Shown here in pieces: positions 1,255 to 17,513 of a DNA stretch of 24,494 nt. The stretch's first letter is position 1. Every line of letters begins with the position of its first letter. Origin of the DNA: a virus (lineage: Duplodnaviria; Heunggongvirae; Uroviricota; Caudoviricetes). The stretch covers positions 1-24,494 of the IMG/VR virus record IMGVR_UViG_2778261179_000018; one strand, given 5' to 3'. Both the position numbers and the translations under genes were made by a program. The notes beneath the pieces are model-generated. The model did not search any database, was not told where the DNA came from, and saw nothing but the letters and a program-made list of their open reading frames with translations.

Positions 1255-1346
1255 ATGGACAGGTTGAGCCTAATCCGACGGGGTGAAAAGCGGAAGCCTT
1301 ACCGCCTGGCTCAATTTTCTAAGGTATTGCGTGAAAAGGTAACGTA

Positions 1347-2306
1347 ATGACAAATGAAAGTAGCACCAATGTATGGGAAAAGAACAACATTCCCGCCCTT
1401 GAGTATTGCACATTGCCCAGAGCAGCAGAAATCCTAACCTGCAAAGTTTCCGACTTGATACACCTTGCAGAAATTGGCGCAATTGAGTTTTGCATAGCAC
1501 TCAGAGAGTTTGAAGCCTCGCTACTCCTCCCTTTTGATTGGCGAGATTCTTCTGAATGGGAAGAAAGATTTCCAGGCCTGCATCACTCCGTGCATAAATC
1601 AGCACTTAGTAGATTTAGGCCTAAGGCAAGCTTAAGTTATTCAACGGAACTTTCAGAAAAACACATAACCTACCATTATCAAAATGAAGATTCGCCAGGC
1701 CTTAGGCGACCTCTGATATTTATATCTGGACTGTGGTCATTATCAGTCACCAATGCTGAAATTTCATTTTTTCGGAAATTATCTATAAATCAAGAGGTTT
1801 CATTAACTGCTTTAGATTTTCTGCTTAAAGAAGCAGATGTGCCGTTCATAAATAATACAAGCACTGGTAGTGATGAGGTGATATTTGTATCACCTCCGAC
1901 AGAGCATTTGTATCCTGACGGTGGATTTCTTGATGAAAGTAAATTAAAGAATATAGCCACGCTGACCATTAATGATATTTTTTTAACAAAAAAGCAAATT
2001 GAAAAAATCTCCAATGGGCTAGGGGTGGAATTACCTAACTATATTAATGGTGGGGTAATTAAGCCAACAAAAGGAGTTGATGATAGCGAACAATATGCTT
2101 GCAATGTAAATCAGAATAAGGTCGGTGAATTTATTGAAATGTTAATTCGATGCGTACCAGAATTAGGTGATGAAGCGATAAACACAAGCGTAAATAATCG
2201 ATACAACATCTTGAAGGCATTCCTTGAGCAAAAACAGAGAGAGGGTAAGTTCACAGATATGAGAATGCCAAGTTCGGCGACTATAGAAAAGTACTTCAAA
2301 ATTTGA
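1347..2306 (+). CDS. Hypothetical protein, AT-rich cargo ORF; N-terminal segment looks HTH-like (TLPRAAEILTCKVSDLIHLAEIG)
   Basis: 319-aa ORF with RBS-like AAGGTAA upstream; visibly AT-rich codon usage unlike the flanking int and alpA genes; no family recognised by eye. Confidence 0.6.
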   Translation: MTNESSTNVWEKNNIPALEYCTLPRAAEILTCKVSDLIHLAEIGAIEFCIALREFEASLLLPFDWRDSSEWEERFPGLHHSVHKSALSRFRPKASLSYSTELSEKHITYHYQNEDSPGLRRPLIFISGLWSLSVTNAEISFFRKLSINQEVSLTALDFLLKEADVPFINNTSTGSDEVIFVSPPTEHLYPDGGFLDESKLKNIATLTINDIFLTKKQIEKISNGLGVELPNYINGGVIKPTKGVDDSEQYACNVNQNKVGEFIEMLIRCVPELGDEAINTSVNNRYNILKAFLEQKQREGKFTDMRMPSSATIEKYFKI

Positions 2307-2357
2307 AACGGAGAGTTTTAAATTTGCAACACTAACGACGGAATATCACCTTTAATT

Positions 2358-2396
2358 CCTGTAACGAAGCAACAACGCTCATACAGGAGTTACAGG
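2358..2396. promoter_or_regulatory. Perfect 8-bp inverted repeat CCTGTAAC / GTTACAGG immediately upstream of alpA, overlapping its RBS
   Basis: CCTGTAAC at 2358-2365 and its reverse complement GTTACAGG at 2389-2396, ending 4 bp before the alpA ATG; candidate operator or RBS-sequestering hairpin. Confidence 0.3.
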
Positions 2397-2400
2397 AAGC

Positions 2401-2604
2401 ATGTTCACAGACACTATCCCCACCAAAGGTTACATCCGCCGCTTTCGCCTAGCCAAACTGCTGGGCGTTAGCGTATCCACTATCGACCGTAAAGTGCGCA
2501 ACGGCTCACTCCCGCGCCCGGTGAAACTGGGTGATAAGATTACCGCATTTGATGCGGTGGAGATACATAACTGGCTGGCAGAATGCCGCGGGAAGGTGGC
2601 CTGA
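2401..2604 (+). CDS. alpA: AlpA-family transcriptional regulator / excisionase-like HTH protein
   Basis: 67 aa; LAKLLGVSVSTIDRKVRNGSLPRPVKLGDK..AF...EI..WL matches the AlpA/phage Xis-like HTH pattern; RBS AGGAAG upstream; int-ORF-alpA arrangement as in CP4-57-type islands. Confidence 0.85.
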   Translation: MFTDTIPTKGYIRRFRLAKLLGVSVSTIDRKVRNGSLPRPVKLGDKITAFDAVEIHNWLAECRGKVA

Positions 2605-3038
2605 TGAAAAAAGAAAACCGCCCCGGACAGCAGGCGGCTAACACAGATAATCGCGGATCTGATGTTACGCCAGCCACCAGCTACAAACAAGCCCCACGAC
2701 GCACACCGAAGAAGCATCGCGCCCGCGTTTATATGCTGCGTACCGGCGTTGAGGGATGGACAGAGAACGATATCTTGCGCTACTGCCGGCTTTCTTCTGG
2801 CCGGAACTACGCCACAGAGCTGGAACGTGAACTGAGTATTTGCCTGGAACGTCTGGAAGAGAAAAATCCGGATGGGATCGGCGCTCATATGCGTTACCGC
2901 TTTGCGTGCCGCAACGATGTGATGAAGGTTATCCAGTTCGTTAACCACATGGCCGCTATTAATCAGCACCGTGGGCTTTCTGTGCAGGATATTACCGACA
3001 TTCTGAACCTCTACCCGGACAACCTCACCGCCGCATAA
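2604..3038 (+). CDS. Hypothetical protein (island-associated, basic N-terminus)
   Basis: ORF-track frame 2583..3038; start chosen at ATG 2604, which overlaps the alpA stop (TGATG coupling). No recognisable domain. Confidence 0.55.
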   Translation: MKKENRPGQQAANTDNRGSDVTPATSYKQAPRRTPKKHRARVYMLRTGVEGWTENDILRYCRLSSGRNYATELERELSICLERLEEKNPDGIGAHMRYRFACRNDVMKVIQFVNHMAAINQHRGLSVQDITDILNLYPDNLTAA

Positions 3039-3051
3039 CGGAGCCTGACAA

Positions 3052-3861
3052 ATGAAAATCGAAAAAAGCCGATTCAATTCGGAGGCCGCCCCTCAACCTG
3101 ACGTTAACCAGGGCGTAATTAACGGTAACGACTTTGCCGCTGTTGTCCCTGTTATTTCCGGTCAGATTGGCGGGCGCGAAACCAATATGGCGAGCGCTAG
3201 AGCACTGCATAAAGCGCTGGGCGTGGGTCGAGACTTCACCACCTGGATTAAAGGGCGCATTAGTCAGTATGGTTTTGCCGCAGGTGTAGATTACATCACC
3301 GTTGAAAATTTGAGCTCACCCGTTTCGGGGAGCGCAAAATTTCGCCAGCAAATCGAGCATGATTACCTTCTCTCGCTGAACATGGCTAAAGAAGTGGCAA
3401 TGGTTGAACGCAACGAACAGGGCCGCGCCGTCCGCCGCTATTTCATCCAGTGCGAGGAAGCGTTACAGCTGAGTGCGCCAGAAATCGCCGCGAAGTACCG
3501 CCGTCACCTCAAAGCCCGCATTGGTGCTGCCAACCTCTTTAAGCCGATGTGCGCTGCTCTGGATGCTGCTCGCGCAGAACAGGGGAAAGAGACGCAAGGC
3601 CGCCACTACAGCAACGAAAGCAACATGATCGCCCGCATCGTGCTGGGTGGCATGACCGCTAAGCAGTGGGCGCAGGTGAACGGTATAGACGGCGAACCTC
3701 GCGATAGCATGAGTGCCGGCCAACTGGAGCACCTCAGCTATCTGGAGAGCACCAACATCACGTTGATCGATATGGGTATGCAGTACAACCAGCGCAAAGC
3801 GGAATTAACCCGCCTGTCTCAGCGCTGGCTGGCTAAACGCATGGGGGTTAACGATGAATAA
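3052..3861 (+). CDS. Phage antirepressor (AntA-like N-terminal domain with KilAC-like C-terminal region)
   Basis: Motif ARALHKALGVGRDFTTWIKGRISQYGFAAGVDYI resembles the AntA/AntB antirepressor domain; 269 aa; RBS GGAG upstream. Confidence 0.7.
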   Translation: MKIEKSRFNSEAAPQPDVNQGVINGNDFAAVVPVISGQIGGRETNMASARALHKALGVGRDFTTWIKGRISQYGFAAGVDYITVENLSSPVSGSAKFRQQIEHDYLLSLNMAKEVAMVERNEQGRAVRRYFIQCEEALQLSAPEIAAKYRRHLKARIGAANLFKPMCAALDAARAEQGKETQGRHYSNESNMIARIVLGGMTAKQWAQVNGIDGEPRDSMSAGQLEHLSYLESTNITLIDMGMQYNQRKAELTRLSQRWLAKRMGVNDE

Positions 3862-4057
3862 GCCCACCAGCACGCGGACGCATCTGGCGTCATTTTATGC
3901 CGGAGATCGAGACAGCGGGAGAGCACCCTATCAGCAGAATAATTCGCTGAAAAATGAGGGGTGCGTCAGCGGGCCTAACGCGGGAAATTCTGGCGTGTTC
4001 AAATTGGCCGGATTTTATGGTTGTTTGCTGGTGGTGATCGGTAACGGTGCCGACCGC

Positions 4058-4088
4058 CAAAAGAAAAAGGGCAGGATTCTGCCCTTTG
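4058..4088 (-). terminator. Rho-independent terminator for the minus-strand RHH gene
   Basis: On the minus strand: AAGGGCAG-aatc-CTGCCCTT hairpin followed by TTTCTTTT; preceded by a second hairpin AAAGCCC-gaatca-GGGCTTT (plus coordinates 4091-4112) right after the gene stop. Confidence 0.5.
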
Positions 4089-4116
4089 GTACCAAAGCCC
4101 TGATTCGGGCTTTGAG

Positions 4117-4296
4117 TCATTCCGATTCTTTGGGCTTCTTGCGCTGCCGGCGTTTGATCTCGCCCTTTGCAGCCGTAATCAGAAATCCGGCCGTACTTTC
4201 ACCCTCTTCTTTCAGTTTCTCTATCTCTTCCAAATCATCGAGAGGGAGTCTTACCGAAAGCTGTAGGGAGCGATTGTTCTTCCTACCTGTTGCCAT
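4117..4296 (-). CDS. Small ribbon-helix-helix (CopG/Arc-like) DNA-binding protein, putative regulator
   Basis: Minus-strand ORF (track 4117..4335); start taken at MATGRKNNRSLQLSVRLPLDDLEEIEKL... with RBS AAGAGG 8 nt upstream; beta-strand then helix pattern (LSVRLP / DDLEEIEKLKEEG) typical of RHH. Confidence 0.5.
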   Translation of the reverse strand: MATGRKNNRSLQLSVRLPLDDLEEIEKLKEEGESTAGFLITAAKGEIKRRQRKKPKESE

Positions 4297-4316
4297 TACT
4301 GAAACCTCTTGCCTTA

Positions 4317-4400
4317 GGTGGTGTTCAGTATACACATCAAAATTGATAATAAAACACTTGAAGTGGTGTTCACTAGGTTATACAGTGGTGGTGTTCACCT
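4317..4400. repeat. Three direct iterons GTGGTGTTCA(C/G); third copy contains TGTTCACC
   Basis: GGTGGTGTTCAGT 4317-4329, GTGGTGTTCACT 4363-4374, GTGGTGGTGTTCACC 4386-4400, in the divergent region between the RHH gene and the rightward small-ORF/primase operon. Confidence 0.6.
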
Positions 4401-4717
4401 TATCCACAGCTAAAGCACAGGTAAGGCACAAAACGGCGAAGCCCAGAGGTGCGCCAACACCTTCCGGGCTCCTGACCACCAGCGATAGAATCAGTATCGA
4501 GGTAGCTATGTCAAATCGTATCACACCCCTGACCGGGCGGCATCGCTCAGCCCTAATTTATTCCTCAGGCGCTTTCTGGCGCTCAACCGCCACGACAAAA
4601 AGGCCAGGCCCTGCCGCCTGTCCGTCGAGGCCGCAACCGAACGTGAAGCCCGCCGTATTCTGGCGCCGCACTTCATCCTTTCTCTGGCTGCTCGCCTGCC
4701 GCTGGTGGGGGTGCGTC

Positions 4718-4897
4718 ATGCTTAAAACCTTCCAGATTGACGGGTACGCGGTTAATAAGCGCGGTAACACCGTCGGCATTCACTACACCCTGACCAGCGA
4801 CAGCCCGGATACAGCCAAATCAACCGCGCAACTACTGGCGCAGCAGGGCGGCTATCAGCACGTTCGCATTACCCGCGTTCAGGAGGTAGCAGCATGA
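4718..4897 (+). CDS. Hypothetical small protein (start uncertain)
   Basis: C-terminal part of track ORF 3854..4897; MLKTFQIDGYAVNKRGNTVGIHY... looks protein-like, whereas the upstream part of the same frame is R/W/C/P-rich and overlaps the iterons and the minus-strand RHH gene. Stop overlaps the next start. Confidence 0.4.
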   Translation: MLKTFQIDGYAVNKRGNTVGIHYTLTSDSPDTAKSTAQLLAQQGGYQHVRITRVQEVAA

Positions 4898-5157
4898 AAA
4901 TTAACACCATCTGTCGCCATCCTGCAGAGCTTGAGGCCGAGGCAATGTTATTCCGTAAACAGCCTTACCCTGACTCTTTCTCGCTGGCAGAGCGTACCGC
5001 GGAACGCATGACCCGCGCCCGCAATGGTCTGGCTCACATTATGACAGAGCTGGCACCACGCCTCGACGATGAGCAAGCGGCCATCGTGCATTGCTGGCTG
5101 GATAAAGTCCTGGCGATTGTCGATATAACCCGAATTGATGCAGAGGCCAGTTTATGA
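4894..5157 (+). CDS. Hypothetical protein
   Basis: 87 aa; strong RBS AGGAGG upstream; translationally coupled to the next ORF (ATGA overlap). Confidence 0.6.
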   Translation: MKINTICRHPAELEAEAMLFRKQPYPDSFSLAERTAERMTRARNGLAHIMTELAPRLDDEQAAIVHCWLDKVLAIVDITRIDAEASL

Positions 5158-5375
5158 GCGGAAAAATCACGATGAAAAGAGATGTTTTCGAGGTCATCAC
5201 TGATGCTGAGCATGCCATTGGCTACTCCAACCAGGCGCTGGCGGTTCTTGACCTATGGCTGGATAGCGTGGGCATTGAAGACGATACCGAAGCGAACCGT
5301 ATCGCGGCGGTTCACAGCCTTGTGTGTGAGTCTCTGACCTGGCTTAAAAAAGCAGCCGGTATTAACGAGGAATAA
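5154..5375 (+). CDS. Hypothetical protein
   Basis: 73 aa; ATGA overlap with the upstream ORF. Confidence 0.55.
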   Translation: MSGKITMKRDVFEVITDAEHAIGYSNQALAVLDLWLDSVGIEDDTEANRIAAVHSLVCESLTWLKKAAGINEE

Positions 5376-5380
5376 AAATC

Positions 5381-5602
5381 ATGGTGAAAAATAATTCTGG
5401 CTCATCTGCCAGTGGTCTCGCTCACCCTGAAATCCTCCACGGCGATAAATGGGCAGATAAAAGCGGTGTACGGGTAATTATCGAAAGCTGCCGGTTCAAC
5501 AGAGTTAAATTTTACCGCGAAGGCTATCAGTCGCCGTGTATTTACCCCGAGCAGCGGTTTATCAAAGAGTTTTCACTAATACAGGGGGCCGTCCATGAAT
5601 AA
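5381..5602 (+). CDS. Hypothetical protein
   Basis: 73 aa; RBS GAGGAA 9 nt upstream; overlaps the next start by 8 bp. Confidence 0.45.
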   Translation: MVKNNSGSSASGLAHPEILHGDKWADKSGVRVIIESCRFNRVKFYREGYQSPCIYPEQRFIKEFSLIQGAVHE

Positions 5603-6167
5603 ACAATCTTATCCGGAAGCTGGCCCCGATGGCGTTATTACCGGCTCCGGGCTGGTGAGCTTTCTTTCGGTAACGGAAAGCCTTAGCCGCGGTGATTATG
5701 ACCGCAACCCGGAGGAAGGCATGGGTCTTGCCTGTGCCGCGCTGGATGGCGTGGCCCTGACGTGGTTCGCGGCAGCGCCAGAACAACATGCTGCTCTCTG
5801 GCGGTGGATTGTTGCGGCGGCATTTGTCGAGGAACAGGTGAAAAATAACGGAAATATCGACGTGATGTGCGAAGATGGCCGCAAAGTTAAGGCAGCTGTC
5901 TATGCCGGGAAATGCGGCGCTATAACCGTTTACCCGGTAGCGGAGCGTGTTGCTCTGGCAAGCCAGGTTGAGGGGTACGCTTTACAGAAATACGGTACTA
6001 CAACGGGTATGGATCTGGCTATCCAGCATTACCAGACGATGCTCGAATGGCGTGATGGCATTTACTGCCTGTCAGATCATGGCCGGGATATTCTTTCCGA
6101 TCTGCACGACAACCTTATCGCCACCATTCACGCCAGTGGTGTTCCTGCGATGCCAACGGAGCACTAA
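5595..6167 (+). CDS. Hypothetical protein
   Basis: 190 aa; RBS AGGGGG upstream; sits directly before the primase in the same operon. Confidence 0.6.
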   Translation: MNKQSYPEAGPDGVITGSGLVSFLSVTESLSRGDYDRNPEEGMGLACAALDGVALTWFAAAPEQHAALWRWIVAAAFVEEQVKNNGNIDVMCEDGRKVKAAVYAGKCGAITVYPVAERVALASQVEGYALQKYGTTTGMDLAIQHYQTMLEWRDGIYCLSDHGRDILSDLHDNLIATIHASGVPAMPTEH

Positions 6168-6171
6168 GCGT

Positions 6172-8856
6172 ATGAAGCGTGCAATTGAGCTTATCCACGA
6201 AGTGAAGCGCCGAACTGCCGGAAGCTGGGAAAGTGTGCTGCCGCAGTGCGGGGTGACGGTTCCGCCGAAAGGTCGTCACGGACCCTGCGCCATCTGCGGC
6301 GGTTCTGACCGCTTTCACTTTATTGACGACCACGGCGGCGGCGAGTGGCATTGTCGCCAGTGTGACGAACCGAATCATGGCGACGGTCTGGATCTCATCG
6401 CCAGAGCGCACGGTATTACCATAACCGCAGCGGCGCAGAAGGTGGCCTCTGTGTTGGGTGTAGATGCCCGGACACCGGAACCGAAGTCGGCCAGAGAGAA
6501 GCCTCAAACGGATATCGCCGGGAAAGTCGCCGGGATGGCCGCTAAAGCTGCGTCCGGACAGTCAGCCTATCTCACATCAAAGGGGCTTCAGTGCCCCTTC
6601 CCGTTGATGCCTGACGGGTCGCTGCTGATGGTGCTGAAAAACGGCGCTGGCGCTGTCACCGGCGCACAGGGGATTAAGCCAGACGGCAATAAGCGGCTGG
6701 TGGCCGGAACGGTGAAGAAAGGCTCCTTCTGTGTGGTTAATTCCGTTGAATCGCCGGAAAAGGTGGTTATCGCTGAAGGACTGGCAACCACGCTCTCAGT
6801 TAACCTGATGCGGCCCGATGCGCTGGCTGTCGTTGCCGTTGATGCCGGGAACCTGCTGCCCGTAGCGGAGGTTATGCGCCGGCGATACCCTGAGGCGCGG
6901 ATCATTATCGCTGCCGATAACGACATAAAGCCGGGAGAGCCAAACACAGGCAAAGAGGCTGCGGATAAAGCTGCTAAAGCCGTCTCTGGCTGGGTGGCTT
7001 TACCGCCAACAGTGAAAAAGGCCGACTGGAACGACTACCACCAGCAGCATGGCCTGGAAGCCGCTACAACGGCGTTTAAGAATTCGATGTATCAACCGCA
7101 GGAGCCTGAAGTGTCCGCGAGACTGCAAGTGATCAACGGAGGGAAGAAAGGCGCATCAAAACCTGAATCTCTGCGATCTCATGTCGAAAGCCGTGCTGAC
7201 GGTATTTTTTGGGTTGAGCCAAAATCAGACAAAGATACCGGGGAAATAACTACCCGTGAAAGCTGGCTGTGTTCTGCTCTGGAGGTCATAGGTACTGGCA
7301 TAGATGACAGTAAAACCCGGTATCTGATCCTGCGCTGGCGCCCATTCGGTTCGAAGGGGGATACTGTCCAGGCAATACCATTTGCTGATATCGGTGAACG
7401 CGAAGGCTGGCGAACGCTCAAGGCTGGTGGGGTGAACGTCACAACCAAAAGTGGTTTACGTGCAACGTTGGCCGACTGGCTGCAGAGCTGTGCCAATGGT
7501 GAGGTATGGCGCATTGCGCATGCTACGGGCTGGCAGTGTGGCGCCTACATCATGCCTGATGGCGAGATCATTGGTACTCCAGATCAACCGGTGCTGTTTA
7601 ACGGACGAAGTTCTGCCGCATCCGGTTATACCACCAGCGGTACTGTTGAGAGCTGGCGAGAGTGCGTTGGACGTCTGGCCTTTGGCAACTACTCGATGAT
7701 GACTGGCGTGGCCGCAGCGCTGGCAGCTCCTTTGATTGGCCTTGCCGGCGCTGATGGTTTTGGTATCCATCTCTATGAGCAGTCGAGCGCGGGTAAGACC
7801 ACCACTGCCAATGTGGCCTCCAGTCTCTATGGCAATCCGGATGTGCTACGCCTCACCTGGTACGGTACTGCGCTGGGGCTGGCGAACGAAGCCGCCGCAC
7901 ATAACGATGCGCTGATGCCGCTTGACGAAATTGGCCAGGGTGCTGACCCGGTGGAGGTCTACAAATCGGCATACGCACTGTTTAACGGCACGGGTAAGCT
8001 GCAGGGAGCGAAGGAAGGCGGAAACCGTGACCTGAAGCGCTGGCGTACTGTGGCCATCAGTACCGGTGAGATGGATCTGGAAACCTTCATCGCGAGCGCC
8101 GGTCGCAAGGCTAAAGCAGGCCAGCTGGTTCGCCTGCTGAATATCCCGATGCGCCGGGCTGTTCGTTTCCATGAACATGCCAACGGCAAACACCATGCCG
8201 ATGCCCTCAAAGATGCATACCAGCATCACCACGGAGTGGCTGGGCGTGAGTGGGTGAAGTGGCTGGCGGACCACCAGCACGAGGCTGTAAGCGCTGTCAG
8301 GGCAGCGGAAGAGCGCTGGCGTAGCCTGATCCCGTCGGATTACGGGGAGCAGGTCCATCGTGTTGGCGCCCGGTTTGCCATTCTGGAGGCCGCACTATTG
8401 TTAGGTAATGTGATCACCGGCTGGGATGAGCAGACGTGTCGGGATGCCATTCAGTACAGCTATAACGCCTGGCTGCGCGAGTTTGGTACCGGCAATAAAG
8501 AACACCAGCAAATTATCGAGCAGACAGAGGCATTCCTGAACGCCTACGGGATGAGCCGTTTTGCACCGTTCCCATATGACCCGACTAGCCTCCCTATCTC
8601 CAACATGGCGGGATACCGGCAGAAAGGCGGGCACGAGACTGACCCGATAGTGTTCTACACCTTCCCGGCAGCCTTCGAAGGGGAGATCGCCCGCGGCTTT
8701 AACTCCCGTCAGTTTGCGGAGGTATTGAAGAAAGCTGGCATGCTGACGCCACCGACTTCAGGCCGGGGATTCCAGAGAAAGTCGCCACGCATTGATGGGC
8801 GACAGATTCGGGTTTATGTCCTGCAGTATCTGCCGGACGACGACCAGCCAGAGTAA
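6172..8856 (+). CDS. Primase-helicase (zinc-binding domain + Toprim + P-loop NTPase; P4 alpha / DUF927-type)
   Basis: Start at MKRAIELIHEV (track ORF begins earlier at 5947 but overlaps the upstream gene). Zinc finger CAICGGSDRFHF...HCRQCD; Toprim acidic motifs VVIAEGLATT and IIIAADNDIKPGE; P-loop-like YEQSSAGKTTT; about 894 aa. Confidence 0.85.
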   Translation: MKRAIELIHEVKRRTAGSWESVLPQCGVTVPPKGRHGPCAICGGSDRFHFIDDHGGGEWHCRQCDEPNHGDGLDLIARAHGITITAAAQKVASVLGVDARTPEPKSAREKPQTDIAGKVAGMAAKAASGQSAYLTSKGLQCPFPLMPDGSLLMVLKNGAGAVTGAQGIKPDGNKRLVAGTVKKGSFCVVNSVESPEKVVIAEGLATTLSVNLMRPDALAVVAVDAGNLLPVAEVMRRRYPEARIIIAADNDIKPGEPNTGKEAADKAAKAVSGWVALPPTVKKADWNDYHQQHGLEAATTAFKNSMYQPQEPEVSARLQVINGGKKGASKPESLRSHVESRADGIFWVEPKSDKDTGEITTRESWLCSALEVIGTGIDDSKTRYLILRWRPFGSKGDTVQAIPFADIGEREGWRTLKAGGVNVTTKSGLRATLADWLQSCANGEVWRIAHATGWQCGAYIMPDGEIIGTPDQPVLFNGRSSAASGYTTSGTVESWRECVGRLAFGNYSMMTGVAAALAAPLIGLAGADGFGIHLYEQSSAGKTTTANVASSLYGNPDVLRLTWYGTALGLANEAAAHNDALMPLDEIGQGADPVEVYKSAYALFNGTGKLQGAKEGGNRDLKRWRTVAISTGEMDLETFIASAGRKAKAGQLVRLLNIPMRRAVRFHEHANGKHHADALKDAYQHHHGVAGREWVKWLADHQHEAVSAVRAAEERWRSLIPSDYGEQVHRVGARFAILEAALLLGNVITGWDEQTCRDAIQYSYNAWLREFGTGNKEHQQIIEQTEAFLNAYGMSRFAPFPYDPTSLPISNMAGYRQKGGHETDPIVFYTFPAAFEGEIARGFNSRQFAEVLKKAGMLTPPTSGRGFQRKSPRIDGRQIRVYVLQYLPDDDQPE

Positions 8857-8886
8857 AAGCATTCTTCCATGTGTGTAGTTTAGGTG

Positions 8887-8996
8887 TTGGTTCAGTTGGT
8901 TCAGTTGCCTCAGTAGTTATATATATCTGTTTAATAAGGGTTCTGGTTTAAAAAATGAACCAACATTGAGGCAACAAACGGGCATTTTGAACCAAC
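8887..8996. repeat. Iteron cluster flanking an AT-rich spacer; candidate replication origin
   Basis: GTTGGTTCA at 8887 and 8896, GTTGCCTCA at 8905, AT-rich 8914-8955, then inverted copies TGAACCAAC at 8956 and 8988 and TGAGGCAAC at 8967; immediately downstream of the primase-helicase gene. Confidence 0.55.
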
Positions 8997-9037
8997 ACAG
9001 AATCAGGTACAGGGCATCAGAAGAGAGGATCACAGCT

Positions 9038-9253
9038 ATGACAGCTCAAATTTCAGCATATGGCCGGCTGGTGGCCGACCCACAGACCCGAACAACCGGG
9101 AAAGGAACAACCATGGCTACGGCCCGTCTTGCGGTAGCTCTGCCCTGTAATGTCGCAGAGAACGGAGAGGCTACTTTCTGGCTGGGTGTCATTGCCTTTG
9201 GTAAGCAGGCTGATGCTCTGGCCAAACACCATAAAGCCGTATCACCAGATTAA
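9038..9253 (+). CDS. SSB-like OB-fold protein, apparently 3'-truncated
   Basis: Start at MTAQISAYGRLVADPQTR with RBS GAGAGGA. Pattern GRLVADP..R...G...A.LAVAL ... W.GVIAFGK.A resembles the N-terminal two-thirds of bacterial SSB, but the ORF stops at about 71 aa just before the AT-rich block. Confidence 0.4.
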   Translation: MTAQISAYGRLVADPQTRTTGKGTTMATARLAVALPCNVAENGEATFWLGVIAFGKQADALAKHHKAVSPD

Positions 9254-9536
9254 TTCGCTGTTGTTACGCGGGGAGAGCGTACCTGATGCCTAGACAAGCC
9301 ATCGCCGAATCACCGGGCTGGCATCAACCTACACATGCAACCTGTAAGTACGACTAAAGCCGTAAAATGGTATGGTCGACAATGCGATTTTTTTTGGCGT
9401 GATGTGCTTTACGGCTAGCAAAAAACGATTATTGGTTAACATTATTGTGTTTTATGTTTACATAAAATGGTTTATGATTTACATGTGTTCGAAAGGGATG
9501 ACTCTTTTTGAAGTCATCAATTTTTCCGGAAAAGGT

Positions 9537-10643
9537 ATGAAAGTGTTAGTTGACGATATTGTTGCTCTTATAGAAGCGTCTTTAGATGCAAACTATTCTG
9601 AAGTACGTAGTGTGAGCAATCGAATTGCCAAAGCTATAAGTACCGATAATATGGATGGTGCGAAAAAAATAAAATCTGTTTTACGACGTAAGGGGGTGCC
9701 GTTACGTAGTTCAGGTTACAGCGATAGCCTACCCGTTGATCCAAAGTCAAGAATGCCCTTGGTAGAAGAGCATCAATGGCCTGTCACGCCTCTTTTCTTA
9801 GAGGAGAGCGAACAGGATACCTTTAACACTTTTGTTGAAAGTGTAAAGCAACAAGATAAGCTGATTGCGAATGGACTAGTTGGTAAACTAGGTTTGCTGC
9901 TTTCTGGGCCGCCAGGAACAGGTAAGACATTGATTGCAGGACATATAGCGTCACAACTTAATAGACCACTTTATGTGGTGAGATTAGATTCTGTAATTTC
10001 TTCACTTCTTGGTGATACAGCAAAGAACCTAAGACAGATCTTTGATTTTGTACCGTCAAAAAATGGTGTTTTATTTCTCGACGAAGTTGATGCCGTTGCA
10101 AAAGTAAGAGATGACCGCCATGAAATAGGAGAACTGAAAAGAGTAGTAAATACATTAATTCAAGGTTTAGACTCTCTTGATGATAGTTCTATAGTTATAG
10201 CTGCGACCAATCACTCTGAATTACTTGATCCTGCTATCTGGAGACGTTTTCCTTTTAAAATACGTCTCGATTTCCCTTCCCAGGAATTACGAGAGTTCTT
10301 ATGGAGTCATTTTTTATTCGGTGATAAAGGCCCGATTAAGGAGTTAAAGGCGTTAGGTATTGTTTCAAATGGACTAAGTGGTGCTGATATTGAAACTATA
10401 GCTATTTCGGCGAGGAGACAATCAGTATTATCGAATACACCTTTGAATATTCCTTCTGTATTGTTATCAATTATGGACAGTGAATACAATAATTCAGTGA
10501 TGCCTAACACTAAGGAACCAAGTTTACATACCAAGAAAAGATTGATAAATCTTTTATACGAAGCAAAATCTTTCACACAGACAGAAATTGCCAGCCTATT
10601 AGGTTTGAGTAGGCAGACAATTTCAAGCCATTTAAAGGAGTAA
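9537..10643 (+). CDS. AAA+ ATPase (classic clade) with C-terminal HTH; IetA-like candidate
   Basis: Walker A GPPGTGKT, Walker B VLFLDEVD, sensor-1 AATN, arginine-finger region DPAIWRRF; C-terminal HTH-like TQTEIASLLGLSRQTISSHLKE. Start ambiguous (ATGs at 9483, 9498, 9537); the track start 9372 is rejected. Strongly AT-rich. Confidence 0.8.
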   Translation: MKVLVDDIVALIEASLDANYSEVRSVSNRIAKAISTDNMDGAKKIKSVLRRKGVPLRSSGYSDSLPVDPKSRMPLVEEHQWPVTPLFLEESEQDTFNTFVESVKQQDKLIANGLVGKLGLLLSGPPGTGKTLIAGHIASQLNRPLYVVRLDSVISSLLGDTAKNLRQIFDFVPSKNGVLFLDEVDAVAKVRDDRHEIGELKRVVNTLIQGLDSLDDSSIVIAATNHSELLDPAIWRRFPFKIRLDFPSQELREFLWSHFLFGDKGPIKELKALGIVSNGLSGADIETIAISARRQSVLSNTPLNIPSVLLSIMDSEYNNSVMPNTKEPSLHTKKRLINLLYEAKSFTQTEIASLLGLSRQTISSHLKE

Positions 10644-10647
10644 TGCT

Positions 10648-12876
10648 ATGGCAGATGGTAATAACCGTAAGAAAGTGTTGAACCCTCTACTTTCGTATTT
10701 GGAGGACCCTGCGCCAAAAGCGATTAATGGTGGAGGCAAGAATGCTGACGATATTCAGTGGGCTAGGTTAGATATTCAAAAAGAGACTTTAAGTAAAAGT
10801 CTTAAAAGTATCAGTGAAAACAAATCTATTATAGCTCACGCTGGTAAAATCCATCTGCTAATTAAAATGTTTGATGATTCATTAGCACCTTCATGGACCC
10901 CGACGGATTTATTTGAAACAAATCCTTTTACTAGACTAGTTTCTCCTGCATACAACGGATTTTTAGTTGAAACAAGCAAAGAAAAGATACCTGAAATTAT
11001 CAAGAAGATAAAAACTGCTAGCAATGATAGAATTAAAGTAGATGTGTCACGACTTGAAAGTATAAAGGCATTTGATAGGAGCGCAGTTTTAAGAGGGAAA
11101 AGCTTATCTGACTTTGATTTTAGTAATGATGGAAACCAGTTTAATATTTGGATTTTACCATTTCATGATCCAAATGCGCGCTTTTCGGTTGCTGAGGAGT
11201 TAGAGGATCTTGTTGATGAGGATGTTATTACGTTTGGTGAATCCATTTATGACAATGTTTTTGATGGAGAAAAAAGAACCTCTGGTACTCGTTCCTTCAA
11301 AAGAAAGTTAAAGCAATATCTATCGCATGGACATTTAACATTTACAGCAGTAGTAAAAAATAATAATGACTTCATAAAGTTAATTGGATCCGGAGCTATA
11401 TATAGAATCGAACCGGTTAAGAAGGTGACAACTAGGTCATTGCCTCCTGGTGAAGGAGAAGAGCCTTCACCAAAACTGATTAATAAAGAAACCGCTCCCG
11501 TTGTAGTTATAGTTGATGGTGGTTGTTCATCGAAGTCTTACTTGCCATTGAATGTGATTAACATTAATCCGCTTATTGATAGCTATCATGCAGATTTAAA
11601 ACATGGCAATTGCGTAACTTCATTGGTTTGCCAGGGCGGAGCTTGGAATAATAAATTACACTTACCACAATTAGAGTGTAAATTTGTTAGCGTACAAGCT
11701 ATAAGTAAGAGAGATGTAAGCCCTCAACCAACCACCGAGCAGTTCATTAATTATCTAAGAGTTGTGGCGGAGAAAACTAAAAATGTTTCTTCTGTTTGGA
11801 ATCTATCATTTAATGAGGCTTCGCCATCCGATAGTGTTGATGAAATTAGTAGGTTGGGACATGAAATAAGTCTTCTGGCTCGCGAATTTAATATATTACC
11901 CGTGATTTCAATTGGTAATGTTAACTCTGACAACCCAACTACCTTATGTCCTCCTGCTGATTGTGAAGCGGCATTGACTGTATCAGGTAGAAAAGCATCT
12001 ATTTTAGGTGAGATCTCTTCACATTGTCCAAAAAGTTTGCGTGGACCTGCTCCTGGTGGAATGAAGAAGCCTGAGCTTTCTTGGTTTTCTAAATTGAGGA
12101 TGTTAGGTGGAGATGTTAAGACAGGTACAAGCTTTAGTGCGCCCTTGATATCAAGCATTGCGGCTCACACGTTCAAAAATCTAAAAGAGCCAACTCCAGA
12201 TTTAGTTAAGGCATTACTGATAAACAAAGCTGAAGGTATTGAGCATGATCTTGGCCTAGGTTGGGGGTCTCCATGGAGGAAAGGGAGTTCTATGCCATGG
12301 ATGTGTGAAGATGGAACTGTGACATTAGCTTGGAATTCTAAATTAAAAGCTGGTAGTGCATATTATTGGAATAATATTCCTATCCCTCCTGAAATGATTG
12401 TAGATGGAAAGATTAAAGGTAGTATTATTCTTACTGCCATCTTAAAGCCAGTAGTTTCTGAATTAGCAGGGGATAACTATTTTTCAACAAGATTACAATG
12501 TGCACTACAGCATGTAAATAATGCAGGCAAGGCCAAAAATCTTCTTGGTACTATGAAAGAGTCAACCGAAAAGGAAATTGATTCCAGAAGTGAATTAGCT
12601 AAATGGAGCCCGATTAGACATCATGGTAAAAGCTTTAAAGGGGTTGCCGTTGATAATAACAAAGTAAGGCTTTATGCGCGTATTTTTACAAGAGATCTTT
12701 TCCAATTTAATTATGCGAGTCATCATGAGTTAGATGAACAAGATGTGGCATTTGTTTTGACCTTTAAAAGTCCTAGCGACGATCCATCAATTTACGACTC
12801 AATGAAGCAACAACTTGGTAACAAGGTCAAAGCTGCGATAATAGAACAGGATATTATTCTGGATAGTGATGTTTGA
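10648..12876 (+). CDS. S8 family subtilisin-like serine peptidase; IetS-like candidate
   Basis: 742 aa; RBS AAGGAG 8 nt upstream; 4-bp gap after the ATPase gene. Candidate catalytic motifs in subtilase order: Asp VVVIVDGGCS, His HGNCVTSLV, Ser GTSFSAPLISSIAAH. AT-rich like its partner. Confidence 0.8.
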   Translation: MADGNNRKKVLNPLLSYLEDPAPKAINGGGKNADDIQWARLDIQKETLSKSLKSISENKSIIAHAGKIHLLIKMFDDSLAPSWTPTDLFETNPFTRLVSPAYNGFLVETSKEKIPEIIKKIKTASNDRIKVDVSRLESIKAFDRSAVLRGKSLSDFDFSNDGNQFNIWILPFHDPNARFSVAEELEDLVDEDVITFGESIYDNVFDGEKRTSGTRSFKRKLKQYLSHGHLTFTAVVKNNNDFIKLIGSGAIYRIEPVKKVTTRSLPPGEGEEPSPKLINKETAPVVVIVDGGCSSKSYLPLNVININPLIDSYHADLKHGNCVTSLVCQGGAWNNKLHLPQLECKFVSVQAISKRDVSPQPTTEQFINYLRVVAEKTKNVSSVWNLSFNEASPSDSVDEISRLGHEISLLAREFNILPVISIGNVNSDNPTTLCPPADCEAALTVSGRKASILGEISSHCPKSLRGPAPGGMKKPELSWFSKLRMLGGDVKTGTSFSAPLISSIAAHTFKNLKEPTPDLVKALLINKAEGIEHDLGLGWGSPWRKGSSMPWMCEDGTVTLAWNSKLKAGSAYYWNNIPIPPEMIVDGKIKGSIILTAILKPVVSELAGDNYFSTRLQCALQHVNNAGKAKNLLGTMKESTEKEIDSRSELAKWSPIRHHGKSFKGVAVDNNKVRLYARIFTRDLFQFNYASHHELDEQDVAFVLTFKSPSDDPSIYDSMKQQLGNKVKAAIIEQDIILDSDV

Positions 12877-13352: not shown

Positions 13353-13538
13353 ATGTCCAGACAAAACGTAAACGTAAAACCGGTATTACTCAGTCACGAG
13401 CAGATAAAGGCGCTGAGTGACATTCAGGAGCAGCACCGCAAAACATCCAGTATCGGCGTTGCGCCAACTATCCATGAGATTGCACGCGGTCTGATGGATA
13501 AAGCGCTGGCGTCTCTCTCCGACGGAGTGAAAGTATGA
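13353..13538 (+). CDS. Small phage protein preceding the tape measure gene
   Basis: 61 aa; RBS GGGGGTGG upstream; ATGA overlap with the downstream gene. Confidence 0.5.
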   Translation: MSRQNVNVKPVLLSHEQIKALSDIQEQHRKTSSIGVAPTIHEIARGLMDKALASLSDGVKV

Positions 13539-15535
13539 ATGCTGAAACTCTGAAGGACTTTTTAATTAGCCTGGGCTTCAAAGTAGATGACGCCGGCGCC
13601 AGAAAATTTGATGCCATCGTTACCGGCGCGACACTCAAGGCGATCGAGCTCGGCACCAAAGTAGAGCTGGCCGCTGCGTCTGTGGTGGCCTTTACCGCGA
13701 AAGTCGCCAGCGGTCTCGATAACTTGTACTGGGCCTCTCAGCGCACTGGCGCAACGGTGCAGGGCATCAAGCAGATCGGCTTTGCCGTCAGCCAGATGGG
13801 CGGCAGTGTGGATGCCGCCCGCGGCTCTCTCGAAAGCCTGGCTCAGTTCATCCGTACCAGCTCCGGAGCCGAGGGTTTCCTGAATCGCCTTGGCGTTCAG
13901 ACCCGCGATGCCAGCGGAAACATGCGGGACATGACGACGATCTTTACCGGCGTCGGCCAGCGTCTCAGCAGCATGCCGTACTATCGCGCTAATCAGTACG
14001 CACAGATGCTCGGCATGGATGAAAACACGCTGCTGGCTATGCGTCGAGGCATTGGCGAGTACATGGGCCAGTATAACGCCATGAAAAAGGCTATCGGGTT
14101 TAATCCTGATCAGGCCGCCGCGGCATCTAACCGCTTTATGACCTCGTTGCGGTCGTTCGGCGAAATGGCCGGCATGGCGCGGGACAAAATCGGCTCTAAC
14201 CTCGCTGGTGGTCTAGCCGGTGCCATTGATAACCTTCGCCGCCAGATCCTTGATAACTTCCCGAAAATAGAGCGCACCATTAACGCAGTGGTGAAGGGTA
14301 TTCTTTGGATGGGGGAGGCCGTCGGACGGGTGGTCTATCGTCTGATACAGGCCGCGGGTGATATCCGGGACTGGTGGAAAGGGCTTGATGAAGACTCCAG
14401 GAAACTCATCGGCACGCTGGGTGGAATGCTGGTGGCCTGGCGATTGCTGAATGCCGCTATGCTCGCCTCTCCGATTACCTGGGTTCTGGCGCTTGCTGGT
14501 GCGCTTCTGCTGCTCTATGACGATTACAAGACGTGGAAAGAAGGCGGTAAAAGCCTCATTGACTGGGATAAGTGGGAGCCGGCGATAAACTTTGCGCTGA
14601 CTGCCATTGAAAAACTATGGACTGGTGTGAAGCGTCTTAAAGACGAGTTGATTAAACTTTTCGGTATCGACCCTAAAACATGGTCGATTAAGTTCGAATT
14701 CGACAGTCTGAAGAAGCAGTTCAATGAGCTGAGCAAGATGCTGGATACCATAGGCAAGCTTCTCAATGCGATTGATGAAGGTCGCTGGTCAGACGCGGCA
14801 GCTTACGCCAGACAACTGCTGAATCAGGGCGGCGAGCCGACACCATCAAACGCGGTGACAGACAGCGCCAATAGCGCTGCGGACTGGATTCAGAATAAAA
14901 CCGGGTTTGACCCCCGCAGTATTGGTCAAGCCGTTACTGGCTGGTTTGGTGGTGAAGCTACTCAATACGGGCAGTCTGTTAAACGACCTCAGGCCTCTAA
15001 AGCTGGCGCTCAGCTGCTGGGTTGGATGGCTCCGATGATGGGTAAACTGGAGGCGTTGTATAACCTCCCTGCGGGCCTGCTCCGTAGTGTTGCTCTCGCT
15101 GAGTCAAACGGCAATCAGTTTGCTGTGTCTGGCGCTGGCGCACAGGGAATGTTTCAGTTTATGCCGGGTACTGCCCGCGATATGGGCCTGCGCGGCAACG
15201 ATGTGTTTAACCCGATGAAAGCGGCGGAAGCGGCGGCGCGGTATCTCTCGATGCTCCTGCAGAAGAACGGCGGCGATCTGAATAAAACTCTGGCCTCCTA
15301 TAACTGGGGCATCGGTAATGTGCAGAAGTACGGCATGGCGCTGATGCCCGGGGAGACCCGTCAATATATCCCGAAAGTGCTCAGCAATATGCCGGGCAGC
15401 GGGGCAACGCTGAACCAGGAAACCAATATCCATATTCACGGCGTCAATAATCCGCGAGAGGCGGCCAATCTGGTGGTTGAAAGGCAGAACACTGTAAACA
15501 ATCGGGCAACCCAGGATCTGGGGAGGAGTAACTGA
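13535..15535 (+). CDS. Phage tail tape-measure-like protein with C-terminal lytic transglycosylase (SLT) domain
   Basis: 666 aa; coiled-coil-like N-terminal region, hydrophobic segment LIGTLGGMLVAWRLLNAAMLASPITWVLALAGALLLL, and SLT motif block AESNGNQFAVSGAGAQGMFQFMPGTARDMG...YNWG. Confidence 0.7.
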   Translation: MNAETLKDFLISLGFKVDDAGARKFDAIVTGATLKAIELGTKVELAAASVVAFTAKVASGLDNLYWASQRTGATVQGIKQIGFAVSQMGGSVDAARGSLESLAQFIRTSSGAEGFLNRLGVQTRDASGNMRDMTTIFTGVGQRLSSMPYYRANQYAQMLGMDENTLLAMRRGIGEYMGQYNAMKKAIGFNPDQAAAASNRFMTSLRSFGEMAGMARDKIGSNLAGGLAGAIDNLRRQILDNFPKIERTINAVVKGILWMGEAVGRVVYRLIQAAGDIRDWWKGLDEDSRKLIGTLGGMLVAWRLLNAAMLASPITWVLALAGALLLLYDDYKTWKEGGKSLIDWDKWEPAINFALTAIEKLWTGVKRLKDELIKLFGIDPKTWSIKFEFDSLKKQFNELSKMLDTIGKLLNAIDEGRWSDAAAYARQLLNQGGEPTPSNAVTDSANSAADWIQNKTGFDPRSIGQAVTGWFGGEATQYGQSVKRPQASKAGAQLLGWMAPMMGKLEALYNLPAGLLRSVALAESNGNQFAVSGAGAQGMFQFMPGTARDMGLRGNDVFNPMKAAEAAARYLSMLLQKNGGDLNKTLASYNWGIGNVQKYGMALMPGETRQYIPKVLSNMPGSGATLNQETNIHIHGVNNPREAANLVVERQNTVNNRATQDLGRSN

Positions 15536-16122
15536 TGGATATTCTTTCAACGCTGTTTCAGCAAAATAGCCGCAGAATCGGGTTAATGGTGCCAAGCGTT
15601 GTTGTTTCTGAAAAACACACTGACATGCTGGAGATTACCGAGCATCCCGTTGAACGCCCCACATCTGCTGGGGCTGGTTTTATTGCTGATCATGCGTATC
15701 GCCGACCCTCTGAAGTGGTAATGGAAATTGGCTTTGCTGGTGGTGGTTCACTGCTGGATTTCTACGACACCCGAAATATTGGACTGTCGACGCCGCTCAA
15801 CAGCATGGGCCCGAAAGAGGTTTATGCGGAGCTGCTGAATATGCAGCAAGGTAAGCAGTTGCTCGACGTCACCACGGGCAAGCGGTTGTACAAAAATATG
15901 CTGATCCGCTCTCTGGAGGTTACCACTGACCGAACTACTGAAAATGTATTATCGGCCACAGTGACACTTCGCGAAGTCATTATCACTCAGACAAAAAGCA
16001 TCAAGGTGGCTGATAAAGCCGATATGAAATATGGCGTAAACACCTCAGCCGTAATTAACACCGGAACTAAAACGCCAGTACCGAAAAATGAGTCCATTCT
16101 TTCCAGCGTGTTTGGAGGTTAA
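15535..16122 (+). CDS. Phage tail/baseplate structural protein (unassigned)
   Basis: 195 aa; TGATG-coupled to the upstream gene; RBS GGAG; position within the tail operon. Confidence 0.55.
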   Translation: MDILSTLFQQNSRRIGLMVPSVVVSEKHTDMLEITEHPVERPTSAGAGFIADHAYRRPSEVVMEIGFAGGGSLLDFYDTRNIGLSTPLNSMGPKEVYAELLNMQQGKQLLDVTTGKRLYKNMLIRSLEVTTDRTTENVLSATVTLREVIITQTKSIKVADKADMKYGVNTSAVINTGTKTPVPKNESILSSVFGG

Positions 16123-16428
16123 ATGTCCGTATCGGAAATTCCGTTAGCGCCCGATAGTCAGAGTTTTAATATCACCCTAGCTGGCGTTGATTATCAAATG
16201 CGCGTGGTCTGGCGCGGGGTATGTTGGTTCCTCGACCTGATGGACAGTACCGGTACGCTGATGATTGGCGGTATTCCGCTGATCACCGGCACTAATCTGC
16301 TGGCGCAGTACCATTATCTCGGCCTCGGGTTCTCGCTTTATGTGGTCTGTGATGACCCGGCCAGCGAAAACCCAACGCAGTTTGATCTTGGCATTAAAAG
16401 CCACCTGTACGCGAAAACTGAGGATTAA
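16123..16428 (+). CDS. Phage tail/baseplate protein (small, unassigned)
   Basis: 101 aa; RBS GGAGG; immediately follows the previous stop. Confidence 0.5.
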   Translation: MSVSEIPLAPDSQSFNITLAGVDYQMRVVWRGVCWFLDLMDSTGTLMIGGIPLITGTNLLAQYHYLGLGFSLYVVCDDPASENPTQFDLGIKSHLYAKTED

Positions 16429-16430
16429 CG

Positions 16431-17513
16431 ATGCCAAGAAACTGGAACCGACATTTTGAACTACAGCTCATCGACGATAACGGCGAGGGTATCAGCCTTA
16501 GCGACTTTAAAGTTGCCTTTAGCGTAGAGCGAAACGATAACCGATGGCCAGCTATGGCGCTGGTCAAAATCTATAACCTTGCCCCCGAAACCCAGAACCG
16601 TATCATGCGCCGTGAATACAGCAAGATAACCCTGATAGCGGGTTATGACGGGCTGGATAGTGCTTCCTCTGATACCGTAAGCGCCAGCGAGGTAGGGAAG
16701 GTGCGCTACGTAACAAATGACACCATAAATAGCCCTGATGGCTCAAATTACGGTGTCATTTTCAGCGGTGATATTGCTTTCACTGTGGAAGGCAAAGACA
16801 ACATTACCGATCGGTACGTCCGTATACAGGCATTTGACGGCGACAAGGCCTTTATGGAAGCGCAGATCAGCACCTCGCTGGCCGCCGGCTATACGCTGAG
16901 CGATGAGTACAATTTGCTCATGAAGCACCTTGAACCGTTCGGTATCCGTAAGGGGGTTGAGCCGGTTTTCCCTGGTACAGTCTATCCGCGAGCTGCGTCA
17001 TACCACGGCCTTGTGAACAACTATCTTTCCCGACTGGCTGATGACCTTCGTGCGACATGGCAATTCAGCTTTGGAAAGGTTGACTTCATTCAGCAGGATG
17101 TGGCGAAACACCGTGCAATCGTCCTGAACGCTGATACCGGGCTGGTGGGCATGCCGCAGCAGACCATTGGCGGAGGGGTGAATGTTACGTGTCTTATTAA
17201 TTCCTTCATTCAGTTACACGGGCTTATTCAGTTGGATCAGGCGTCAGTGTATCGTGCACAGTTGAGCAATGAGCAGGTTTTACAGGCTGGTGGTATTGCG
17301 CCGGAACAGGAAATTAACGGCAACCTTGTCACAAGTGGTCTGGCGCAGAGAGAGAATCCGGCGAGTGTTGCGACAGACGGTGTTTATATCGTCCGCTACC
17401 TCTCATATCGAGGCGATACGCGCGGGCAGGACTGGTACATGGATTTAGCTTGCGAAGCCCGAGGAAATGCTGACGTTCCCTCATCGTCTTACTTACTCAA
17501 ACAGGATTCTTAA
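16431..17513 (+). CDS. Putative baseplate hub protein (gp27 / late-control-D-like)
   Basis: 360 aa; RBS GAGGA; lies between the tape measure and the spike gene, the usual hub position. Assignment is by context and size, not by a recognised motif. Confidence 0.5.
   Translation: MPRNWNRHFELQLIDDNGEGISLSDFKVAFSVERNDNRWPAMALVKIYNLAPETQNRIMRREYSKITLIAGYDGLDSASSDTVSASEVGKVRYVTNDTINSPDGSNYGVIFSGDIAFTVEGKDNITDRYVRIQAFDGDKAFMEAQISTSLAAGYTLSDEYNLLMKHLEPFGIRKGVEPVFPGTVYPRAASYHGLVNNYLSRLADDLRATWQFSFGKVDFIQQDVAKHRAIVLNADTGLVGMPQQTIGGGVNVTCLINSFIQLHGLIQLDQASVYRAQLSNEQVLQAGGIAPEQEINGNLVTSGLAQRENPASVATDGVYIVRYLSYRGDTRGQDWYMDLACEARGNADVPSSSYLLKQDS

Follow-up and report, generated by a model that had tools for sequence, protein, structure and literature searches.

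The architecture treated here, in which iterons (short repeated binding sites) lie on both sides of an AT-rich region behind an initiator gene, has been published and functionally tested for the phage-inducible chromosomal islands (PICIs) of Gram-negative bacteria and for the Staphylococcus aureus pathogenicity islands (SaPIs) (PMC6092414, PMC9371898). The pri-rep-ori region of the Gram-negative PICI EcCICFT073 was positive in a replicon test (Fillol-Salom et al. 2018, PMC6092414). For SaPIs, passages of PMC9371898 and PMC7581432 that refer to Ubeda et al. 2007/2012 describe 6–12 iterons immediately downstream of rep with an AT-rich centre and at least two iterons per side in opposite directions, and in passages of the same two papers a winged-helix domain within the C-terminal domain of Rep is named as the part recognizing the iterons. 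The PICI 'Primase' family includes DUF927 proteins (PMC10111431), and for Cch2, an SCCmec helicase unrelated to Cch, a matching iteron site has been demonstrated (PMC7581432). In this study, we analyzed a 111-bp element in a DNA stretch of 24,494 nucleotides, deposited as IMG/VR virus record IMGVR_UViG_2778261179_000018 (Caudoviricetes); the whole stretch is called the window, and all positions refer to it. Comparison of sequences indicates that the element, situated behind the gene of a primase-helicase termed Pri-Rep, very probably serves an integrated PICI-type phage-satellite island in Klebsiella as one iteron module of its replication origin.

An earlier note made from the letters of the window had described six 9-mers in inverted clusters around an AT-rich stretch of about 40 bp at 8887–8996, directly after the primase-helicase gene. 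By repeat finding and pattern searches, exact copies of all six repeats were located, three on each side (Table 1), and the AT-rich stretch was found to comprise 43 bp with 77% A+T. The open reading frame (ORF) of Pri-Rep indeed ends 29 bp before the first repeat. The end at 8996 was correct, while the start had to be moved by one position to 8886. The left set is strictly head-to-tail with 9-bp spacing. The sequences of the right set are the reverse complements of the left-set 9-mers, with start-to-start spacings of 11 and 21 bp, and GTTGNNTCA is proposed as iteron consensus.

Table 1. Coordinates of the iteron module, the Pri-Rep gene and neighboring features in the window.
Feature	Position	Strand	Basis
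Tyrosine integrase with Arm-DNA-binding domain	1-1254	+	Pfam
AlpA regulator	2401-2604	+	PF05930 Phage_AlpA E 5.3e-8, above curated cut-off
Pri-Rep primase-helicase gene, 894 aa	6172..8856	+	Pfam, PHROG, PDB matches
Pri-Rep C-terminal 210 residues, helical bundle followed by winged-helix-like end; proposed iteron-recognition domain	8224..8853	+	AlphaFold2, Foldseek, covariation
Leader between stop codon and first iteron, 29 bp	8857..8885	+	Alignment of nine sequences of this module
Left iteron set: GTTGGTTCA, GTTGGTTCA, GTTGCCTCA	8886-8894, 8895-8903, 8904-8912	+	Repeat finder and pattern searches
AT-rich spacer, 43 bp, 77% A+T; proposed DNA-unwinding element	8913..8955	.	
Right iteron set, inverted: TGAACCAAC, TGAGGCAAC, TGAACCAAC	8956-8964, 8967-8975, 8988-8996	-	Repeat finder and pattern searches
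Truncated gene of single-stranded DNA-binding protein (ssb), 71 aa	9038..9253	+	Pfam SSB 5e-7; PHROG 44 1.2e-16
IetA/IetS anti-phage defence pair	9372-10643, 10648-12876		PADLOC E 3.5e-105, 5e-70

The clustering of the repeats exceeds chance by far, as the earlier note had supposed. The pattern GTTGSYTCA, which was defined after the repeats had been seen so that the shuffle test is generous, matches eight times in the window compared to 0.83 expected matches, and none of 100 shuffles reached eight. Six of these matches fall inside the 111 bp (8886–8996), while the remaining two (12803, 17543) are singletons of GTTGCTTCA; a search for iteron clusters inside the window yielded none besides this one. 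An AT content as high as that of the spacer occurs in just 0.7% of all 43-bp windows of the 24.5 kb, and in 0.4% of those within the GC-rich part 1–9250. The spacer contains a semi-conserved core (CTGTTTAATAAGG / YTGWTTWATAAGG), and a CATGTGYGTAG motif in the leader ahead of the first iteron is partly conserved among relatives. Both could serve as signals for priming or melting or as host-factor sites; neither fits the DnaA or the IHF consensus, and a scan of 8801–9100 for DnaA boxes, the IHF consensus and GATC gave just one GATC (9028).

The protein encoded upstream begins with a Zn-ribbon and TOPRIM primase at its N-terminus, continues with a DUF927 (MCM-like AAA+) helicase and has a putative origin-binding region at its C-terminus. 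Translation and the lengths of homologues make the ATG at 6172 the likely start codon rather than the GTG at 5947. Pfam domains found were Zn_Ribbon_Prim (4e-9), Toprim_3 (2e-14) and DUF927 (9.5e-48), while D5_N and Pox_D5 were not found in the same scan, and the protein matches PHROG 1139 (DNA primase; 1.7e-175). Klebsiella quasipneumoniae and K. pneumoniae encode the proteins nearest to it. Residues 447–791 match PDB 8tch_A, a SaPIbov1 protein described as initiating replication and having helicase activity, with an E-value of 1.2e-10, and more weakly 5dgk (SCCmec Cch). By sequence, Pri-Rep can thus be assigned to the SaPIbov1 Rep/Cch (DUF927) type of helicase, which suggests that it would form hexamers and load itself. 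The primase part has a different kinship: the alpha gene of phage P4 is 34.4% identical to Pri-Rep residues 17–311 (tblastn, E 4e-30), and this match stops at residue 311.

For the C-terminal 210 residues, AlphaFold2 gave a model with a mean pLDDT (predicted local distance difference test) of 90.4 from a 60-sequence alignment. The top Foldseek matches of this model were 8tch_B of SaPIbov1 Rep (E 6.7e-6, 197 columns) and 5dgk of Cch. A sequence-profile search of the same residues against the PDB gave a chance-level match alone. The last ~62 residues matched 5vfx, the winged-helix (wHTH) oriT-binding protein of pCW3; DNA-binding domains of heat shock factors (HSF) were far weaker, with a probability below 0.1. 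The motif of this region linked to specificity is GRGFQRKSPRIDGRQ. Many homologues match only from residue ~304–332 onwards or are 710-aa DUF927 proteins lacking Zn-ribbon and TOPRIM, and still have the iterons at the same place (e.g. L010, L015 and L017 in IMG/VR; L210–L214 in E. coli). Since these relatives keep the iterons, the repeats travel with the helicase and C-terminal part and not with the primase. The primase domain at the N-terminus is thus exchangeable, whereas helicase, C-terminal domain and origin remain joined.

Conservation of the module was analyzed by a protein-driven homologue scan of one genome per species (GTDB), starting from an 8-sequence alignment of closer relatives. 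It yielded 79 loci with 33–98% identity from Enterobacterales and one Pseudomonas. The earlier note had named missing repeats in related elements as evidence against an origin. In the relatives, however, the repeats proved to be present: of the 75 homologous loci with 200 bp or more of sequence downstream, 70 have, in the 450 bp after the stop codon, an 8-mer that occurs 4–13 times and whose motif varies by clade. In the common layout the first copy stands 23–30 bp past the stop codon and the tandem copies number two to three, spaced by 9 bp; the first inverted copy comes 52 bp later, with further ones at +11 and +21. Among relatives with a protein identity of about 50% or more this layout is constant across differing iteron motifs, and the 11/21 spacing of the right set is common to most relatives. 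The spacer is exactly 43 bp long in 27 of 36 relatives, with a mean AT content of 78%. Nine such regions were aligned; the iteron columns are invariant in this alignment, while the DNA between them and the flanks are variable, resembling a footprint.

The first relatives found with the motif at the same place were E. coli LR-33 and the 'Klebsiella phage' P12620-1, with 68–75% DNA identity. An exact scan of IMG/VR for the 18-mer GTTGGTTCAGTTGGTTCA gave at least 119 loci. Among the matches listed, 80 loci hold at least four GTTGGTTCA copies in both orientations within 400 bp, and in 69 of these 80 the 3′ end of a Pri-Rep homologue is no more than 120 bp away (median 33 bp). DNA homologous to 7300–9040 is present in 733 of 5426 complete E. 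coli genomes (~13%), and the full-length E. coli alignments end at position 8999, three bases past the last iteron. A search of a phage collection for close DNA relatives returned only Klebsiella phage P12620-1 and a 2-kb fragment. The P12620-1 record (L002, GenBank PQ569648, 106.5 kb), deposited as a phage genome, contains a DUF927 homologue followed by 11 GTTGGTTCA iterons, and the genes in this region are all annotated as hypothetical. This record may include satellite or island DNA, or may be a chimeric assembly.

It is the final ~70 residues of the protein with which the repeat sequence covaries, not the helicase core. Iteron motifs by clade are GTTGGTTCA, GTTGTCTCA, GTTGCCTCA, GTCGGTTCA, ACGGGTTAY/TGCGGGTTA and AGTGTGTCA, as well as GTTGTCCCA/CTTGTCCCA, CGGGATAAC/TGGGATAAC, GGTGTAACA/GGTGGAACA/ACTGGTAAC and others. 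In a partial Mantel analysis of 58 loci, iteron distance correlated with distance in residues 825–894 when controlled for the helicase core (r = 0.53), a value reached by 0 of 2000 permutations; the reverse partial correlations of core or N-terminus given the C-terminus were negative. Protein pairs with more than 75% core identity share 72.8% of their C-terminal residues if they have the same iteron and 61.8% if the iterons differ, at equal core identity of 84%. Identities by segment show where the switch lies. L144 and L146, which have the iteron ACGGGTTAY, are 81–88% identical to the window protein in core residues 451–780, as are proteins of the GTTGGTTCA class, but just 44–45% in the last 54 residues. 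The Morganella protein L155, which has the iteron GTTGGTTCA, is 61–66% identical in the core and 69–70% in the C-terminus.

At the residue level, the segment GRG[YF]QRKS-PR-IDGRQ marks the GTTGGTTCA class. In phylogenetically scattered proteins of the GTTGTCTCA class, QRKS is replaced by QG[RK][VT] or QNRT, and other iteron classes have their own class-specific forms of this segment. GTTGCCTCA makes up two of the six iterons in the window (8904–8912; 8967–8975), and an island in E. coli JNEC-KY171 (L214) has no iteron but this exact 9-mer. The C-terminal motif of the Rep protein of that island is clearly different, GRGWKIKTPRLKNLNG compared to GRGFQRKSPRIDG in the window protein.

A second module starts 51 bp past the end of the window and is known from contigs that are 100% identical to its last 10.3 kb (L205/L207, 10345–10464, equivalent to window positions 24545–24664), which places it 15.6 kb downstream of the first. 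It has three GTTGGTTCA copies 20–21 bp apart, a 43-bp AT-rich spacer, and then TGAGACAAC, TGAACCAAC and CGAACCAAC in tandem at 9 bp. When reverse-complemented it aligns with the first module and is thus an inverted paralogue. The island ends shortly past the window, where this module is followed by a second integrase gene and the host genes xseA-guaBA. The module is expected to bind the same protein. Distal modules were also found in E. coli LR-33 (13.9 kb from the first module), FDAARGOS_1261 (7.5 kb), JNEC-KY171 (~6 kb, with GTTGCCTCA iterons) and the IMG/VR loci L099 and L081, always near the right end of the island. In other islands, for example those of E. coli 1368KP and of an O157:H7 strain, the latter with capsid and terminase genes, both modules are contiguous in a composite of 290–330 bp with 11–12 iterons; no distal copy was found there (e.g. 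L210, L211). Module matches in E. coli amount to 942 places in 527 genomes with a median of two per genome, all in unannotated DNA. The idea that a distal module occurs only where the proximal origin is single is contradicted by the JNEC-KY171 island, which has a composite origin and a distal module.

Compared to the described systems, the locus has, at the sequence level, most of the features that define Gram-negative PICIs and a SaPI-type Rep/ori. As in Gram-negative PICIs, int, alpA and pri-rep are co-oriented, ssb adjoins pri-rep-ori (PMC10111431), and two iteron sets surround an AT-rich region immediately 3′ of pri-rep, in line with the definition in PMC6092414. Differences are the larger size of at least 24.7 kb, late genes resembling those of phage tail tips, the IetAS pair, an insertion sequence (IS), and the distal module, for which the cited PICI literature describes no counterpart. 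The DUF927 Rep family is shared with the E. coli O157:H7 island, which resembles the published EcCIEDL933, but iteron (TGCGGGTTA there) and C-terminal-domain class differ.

With the SaPI system the locus has in common a DUF927 helicase and a C-terminal region homologous to SaPIbov1 Rep, as well as six iterons arranged 3 + 3 in opposite orientations around an AT-rich centre directly after rep (PMC9371898). Differences are the Gram-negative host, an iteron length of 9 bp instead of 5–6 bp, the strictly tandem left set with 9-bp phasing, and the fusion of a DnaG-type Zn-ribbon/TOPRIM primase to Rep; in SaPIbov1 the primase has a gene of its own. SCCmec Cch (PDB 5dgk) likewise has a DUF927 MCM-like helicase and a similar C-terminal region, but no fused primase, and the cited literature reports no origin of its own. 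Phage P4 (NC_001609) shares the homologous N-terminal Zn-ribbon/TOPRIM primase (34% over ~300 aa), a two-orientation iteron cluster, with tandem copies at 9 bp, a few tens of bp after the gene, and a second cluster of the same iteron kilobases away. A single polypeptide with primase, helicase and C-terminal winged helix is also common to both; the winged helix is predicted here, and for P4 the origin-binding domain is PDB 1ka8 as cited in a passage of PMC2777425. The P4 helicase is of the D5/SF3 type and not DUF927, and its iteron is TGTTCACC instead of GTTGGTTCA/GTTGCCTCA, so that the locus is not a member of the P4 system. Furthermore, P4 crr consists of two 120-bp direct repeats, a structure absent here, and the gene order relative to int/attP differs.

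The assumption of the earlier note that the repeats form an origin served by the adjacent primase-helicase is therefore supported by comparison, namely by conservation, C-terminal covariation, predicted fold and published architecture. From these data and the related systems we infer the following course of binding, melting, loading, priming and initiation. After induction, the rightward operon would express Pri-Rep, as in Gram-negative PICIs, and its C-terminal winged-helix region would bind the 9-bp iterons, as suggested by covariation and structural homology to SaPIbov1 Rep. Following the model for SaPI Rep, two hexamers would assemble, one at either flank of the spacer, in opposite orientation because the iteron sets point in opposite directions; the AT-rich spacer would then melt, and the MCM-like DUF927 rings would load themselves onto the single strands. 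The fused TOPRIM primase would lay the first primers, and host polymerase and host SSB would presumably take over, the ssb gene of the island being truncated.

Several points weigh against this reading. Binding, melting and initiation at GTTGGTTCA-class origins, this one included, are deduced from sequences and from analogy to related systems. The absence of DnaA boxes and IHF consensus sites fits a self-loading initiator yet lends no independent support. Part of the covariation could be due to co-transfer by recombination, as the C-terminal coding region adjoins the iterons. Simple hitch-hiking is insufficient, since distal modules 6–16 kb away carry the same iteron class, including that of the GTTGCCTCA-class island L214. 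The two GTTGCCTCA sites in the module are cognate sites of a different C-terminal domain elsewhere, so that the recognition rules are only partly understood; either positions 5–6 are tolerated or the origin is a recombinant of two specificity classes. Finally, a paralogous second module exists, the origin might therefore be bipartite or the first module an auxiliary site, and in P4 the iteron cluster straight after alpha is crr and not ori.

The role of the second module bears directly on the rival explanations; it may be a second origin, a crr-like partner as in P4, or a copy-control site. Tentatively, and with rather less than even confidence, we propose a bipartite origin of two inverted paralogous modules, either contiguous (~290–330 bp) or split by 6–16 kb. 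Rep would pair the modules by looping, as with P4 ori-crr, or fire from both, and the interval would serve as a cargo hotspot; in split arrangements it holds ssb, defence cargo and late genes. The recognition code would be QRKS for GTTGGTTCA and QG[RK][VT] for GTTGTCTCA. A stricter parallel to P4, in which the module behind pri-rep binds Rep merely as a cis-acting partner that, by pairing or looping, would be required for or would stimulate initiation elsewhere, probably at the distal module, was retained because of the P4-like primase domain (34% identical to that of P4 alpha) and the two modules present in the window island and in E. coli relatives, where the median is two module places per genome. 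In the P4 record crr (4291–4590) lies 46 bp downstream of alpha and the true ori 4.5 kb away, and the type-1 repeats of crr point both ways, with one pair of them in tandem 9 bp apart. This explanation is nevertheless unlikely: in its helicase and C-terminal domain the protein belongs to the SaPIbov1 Rep/Cch type, not to the P4 D5/SF3 type, the rep-proximal site is the origin in SaPIs and EcCICFT073 (PMC6092414, PMC9371898), many relatives have contiguous modules with no distal site (L210, L211), and both modules have the same design of iterons, AT-rich spacer and iterons, neither being more origin-like.

Two further functions would do without initiation at this site. In P1 and F plasmids, iteron clusters after the rep gene (incA and incC, respectively) are control loci, and iterons of this kind would limit replication by titration of Rep or handcuffing of origins. 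Two separated clusters with the same iteron in one island would suit such control; yet these clusters are typically direct-repeat arrays lacking a central AT-rich spacer, whereas here the sets are inverted, and the 43-bp spacer between them is conserved in length, with ~78% AT in relatives. A satellite replicating in a burst after induction also needs little strict copy control, and the homologous SaPI/PICI sites are origins (PMC6092414), which makes this role very improbable. Slightly less probable still is a transcriptional operator of the ssb/late operon, a terminator of pri-rep or a structured RNA. The region does lie between two co-oriented genes, and as a single strand it can form a long hairpin with a minimum free energy of -21.4 kcal/mol (DNA parameters; z = -4.8). 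Moreover, motif changes between clades keep the two sides complementary and could pass for RNA covariation. The covariation is, however, with a protein domain, and the arms are not collinear, the left being contiguous and the right spaced by 11 and 21 bp; together with the same-strand copies 21 bp apart in the second module this fits protein sites better. Neither a sigma-70-like promoter nor an intrinsic terminator was detected in 8857–9037, the wider scan of 8600–9400 gave no promoter and one weak terminator-like site on the minus strand within the rep gene, and an Rfam scan (E ≤ 1) of 8600–9400 gave no match. Binding of Rep could still regulate transcription as a side effect.

With regard to novelty, the origin type is already known from PICIs/SaPIs and P4. 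A full-text literature search with the 9-mer gave nothing but unrelated texts on primers and shRNA, and as far as these searches show, the Klebsiella island, its GTTGGTTCA/GTTGCCTCA iterons and its TOPRIM-DUF927 Rep are apparently undescribed. The distal or bipartite arrangement and the residue-level specificity signature are possibly new. The comparison provides a candidate cis-acting replication site and a likely binding domain for a DUF927 primase-helicase family across Enterobacterales; among the cargo of its islands are defence systems (here IetAS) and virulence regulators. Knowledge of origin and specificity determinant can be used to predict incompatibility or cross-replication of co-resident satellites, to build minimal replicons and to design binding tests. 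If functional, the distal module would tie PICI replication mechanistically to P4 ori-crr, and if the origin is bipartite, the covariation data would give a small recognition code for retargeting initiators.

By its gene content, the element appears to be an integrated Klebsiella island with the int-alpA-pri set of Gram-negative PICIs (PMC6092414, PMC10111431, PMC11773190). According to the ORF map, plus-strand genes run from position 1 to ~21.4 kb. From int to the distal module the island extends over at least 24.7 kb, of which ~5 kb are the IetAS insertion and the IS, compared to a PICI criterion of about 10–20 kb and an incomplete set of phage structural and lysis genes. The ssb gene follows the origin in the replication module of related islands, and full-length SSB homologues of 147 aa are encoded in L122 and E. 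coli LR-33. GC content drops after ssb, and a low-GC insertion (9254–12876), which contains the IetA/IetS pair, starts where ssb is cut to 71 of ~147 codons. A related Klebsiella island has a different minus-strand gene set at the same place after ssb, which suggests a hotspot for cargo and defence genes.

Tail-tip-like proteins are encoded at 13535–18616, namely a 666-aa SLT-domain protein matching tape-measure PHROGs and Dit_like, Pam3_gp18, baseplate-hub-like and Apex-domain proteins; E. coli relatives have P22-like DNA-ejection proteins at this position. The tail-like genes had suggested a complete prophage; this was rejected, since the island, followed through contigs identical to the end of the window up to the flanking host genes xseA-guaBA, showed no capsid, portal or large terminase gene. 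The tail-tip-like genes could be late genes that the island took over from a helper phage. A protein of 152 aa with a SocA_Panacea domain and a 145-aa partner (19155–20053) resemble a toxin-antitoxin pair. They are followed by an IS3-family transposase in two ORFs (20159–21384), and this IS is absent from the otherwise identical contigs L203 and L206. The window further encodes an AntA antirepressor, a DUF4222 protein and, near its end (23584–23994), a DUF2280 protein.

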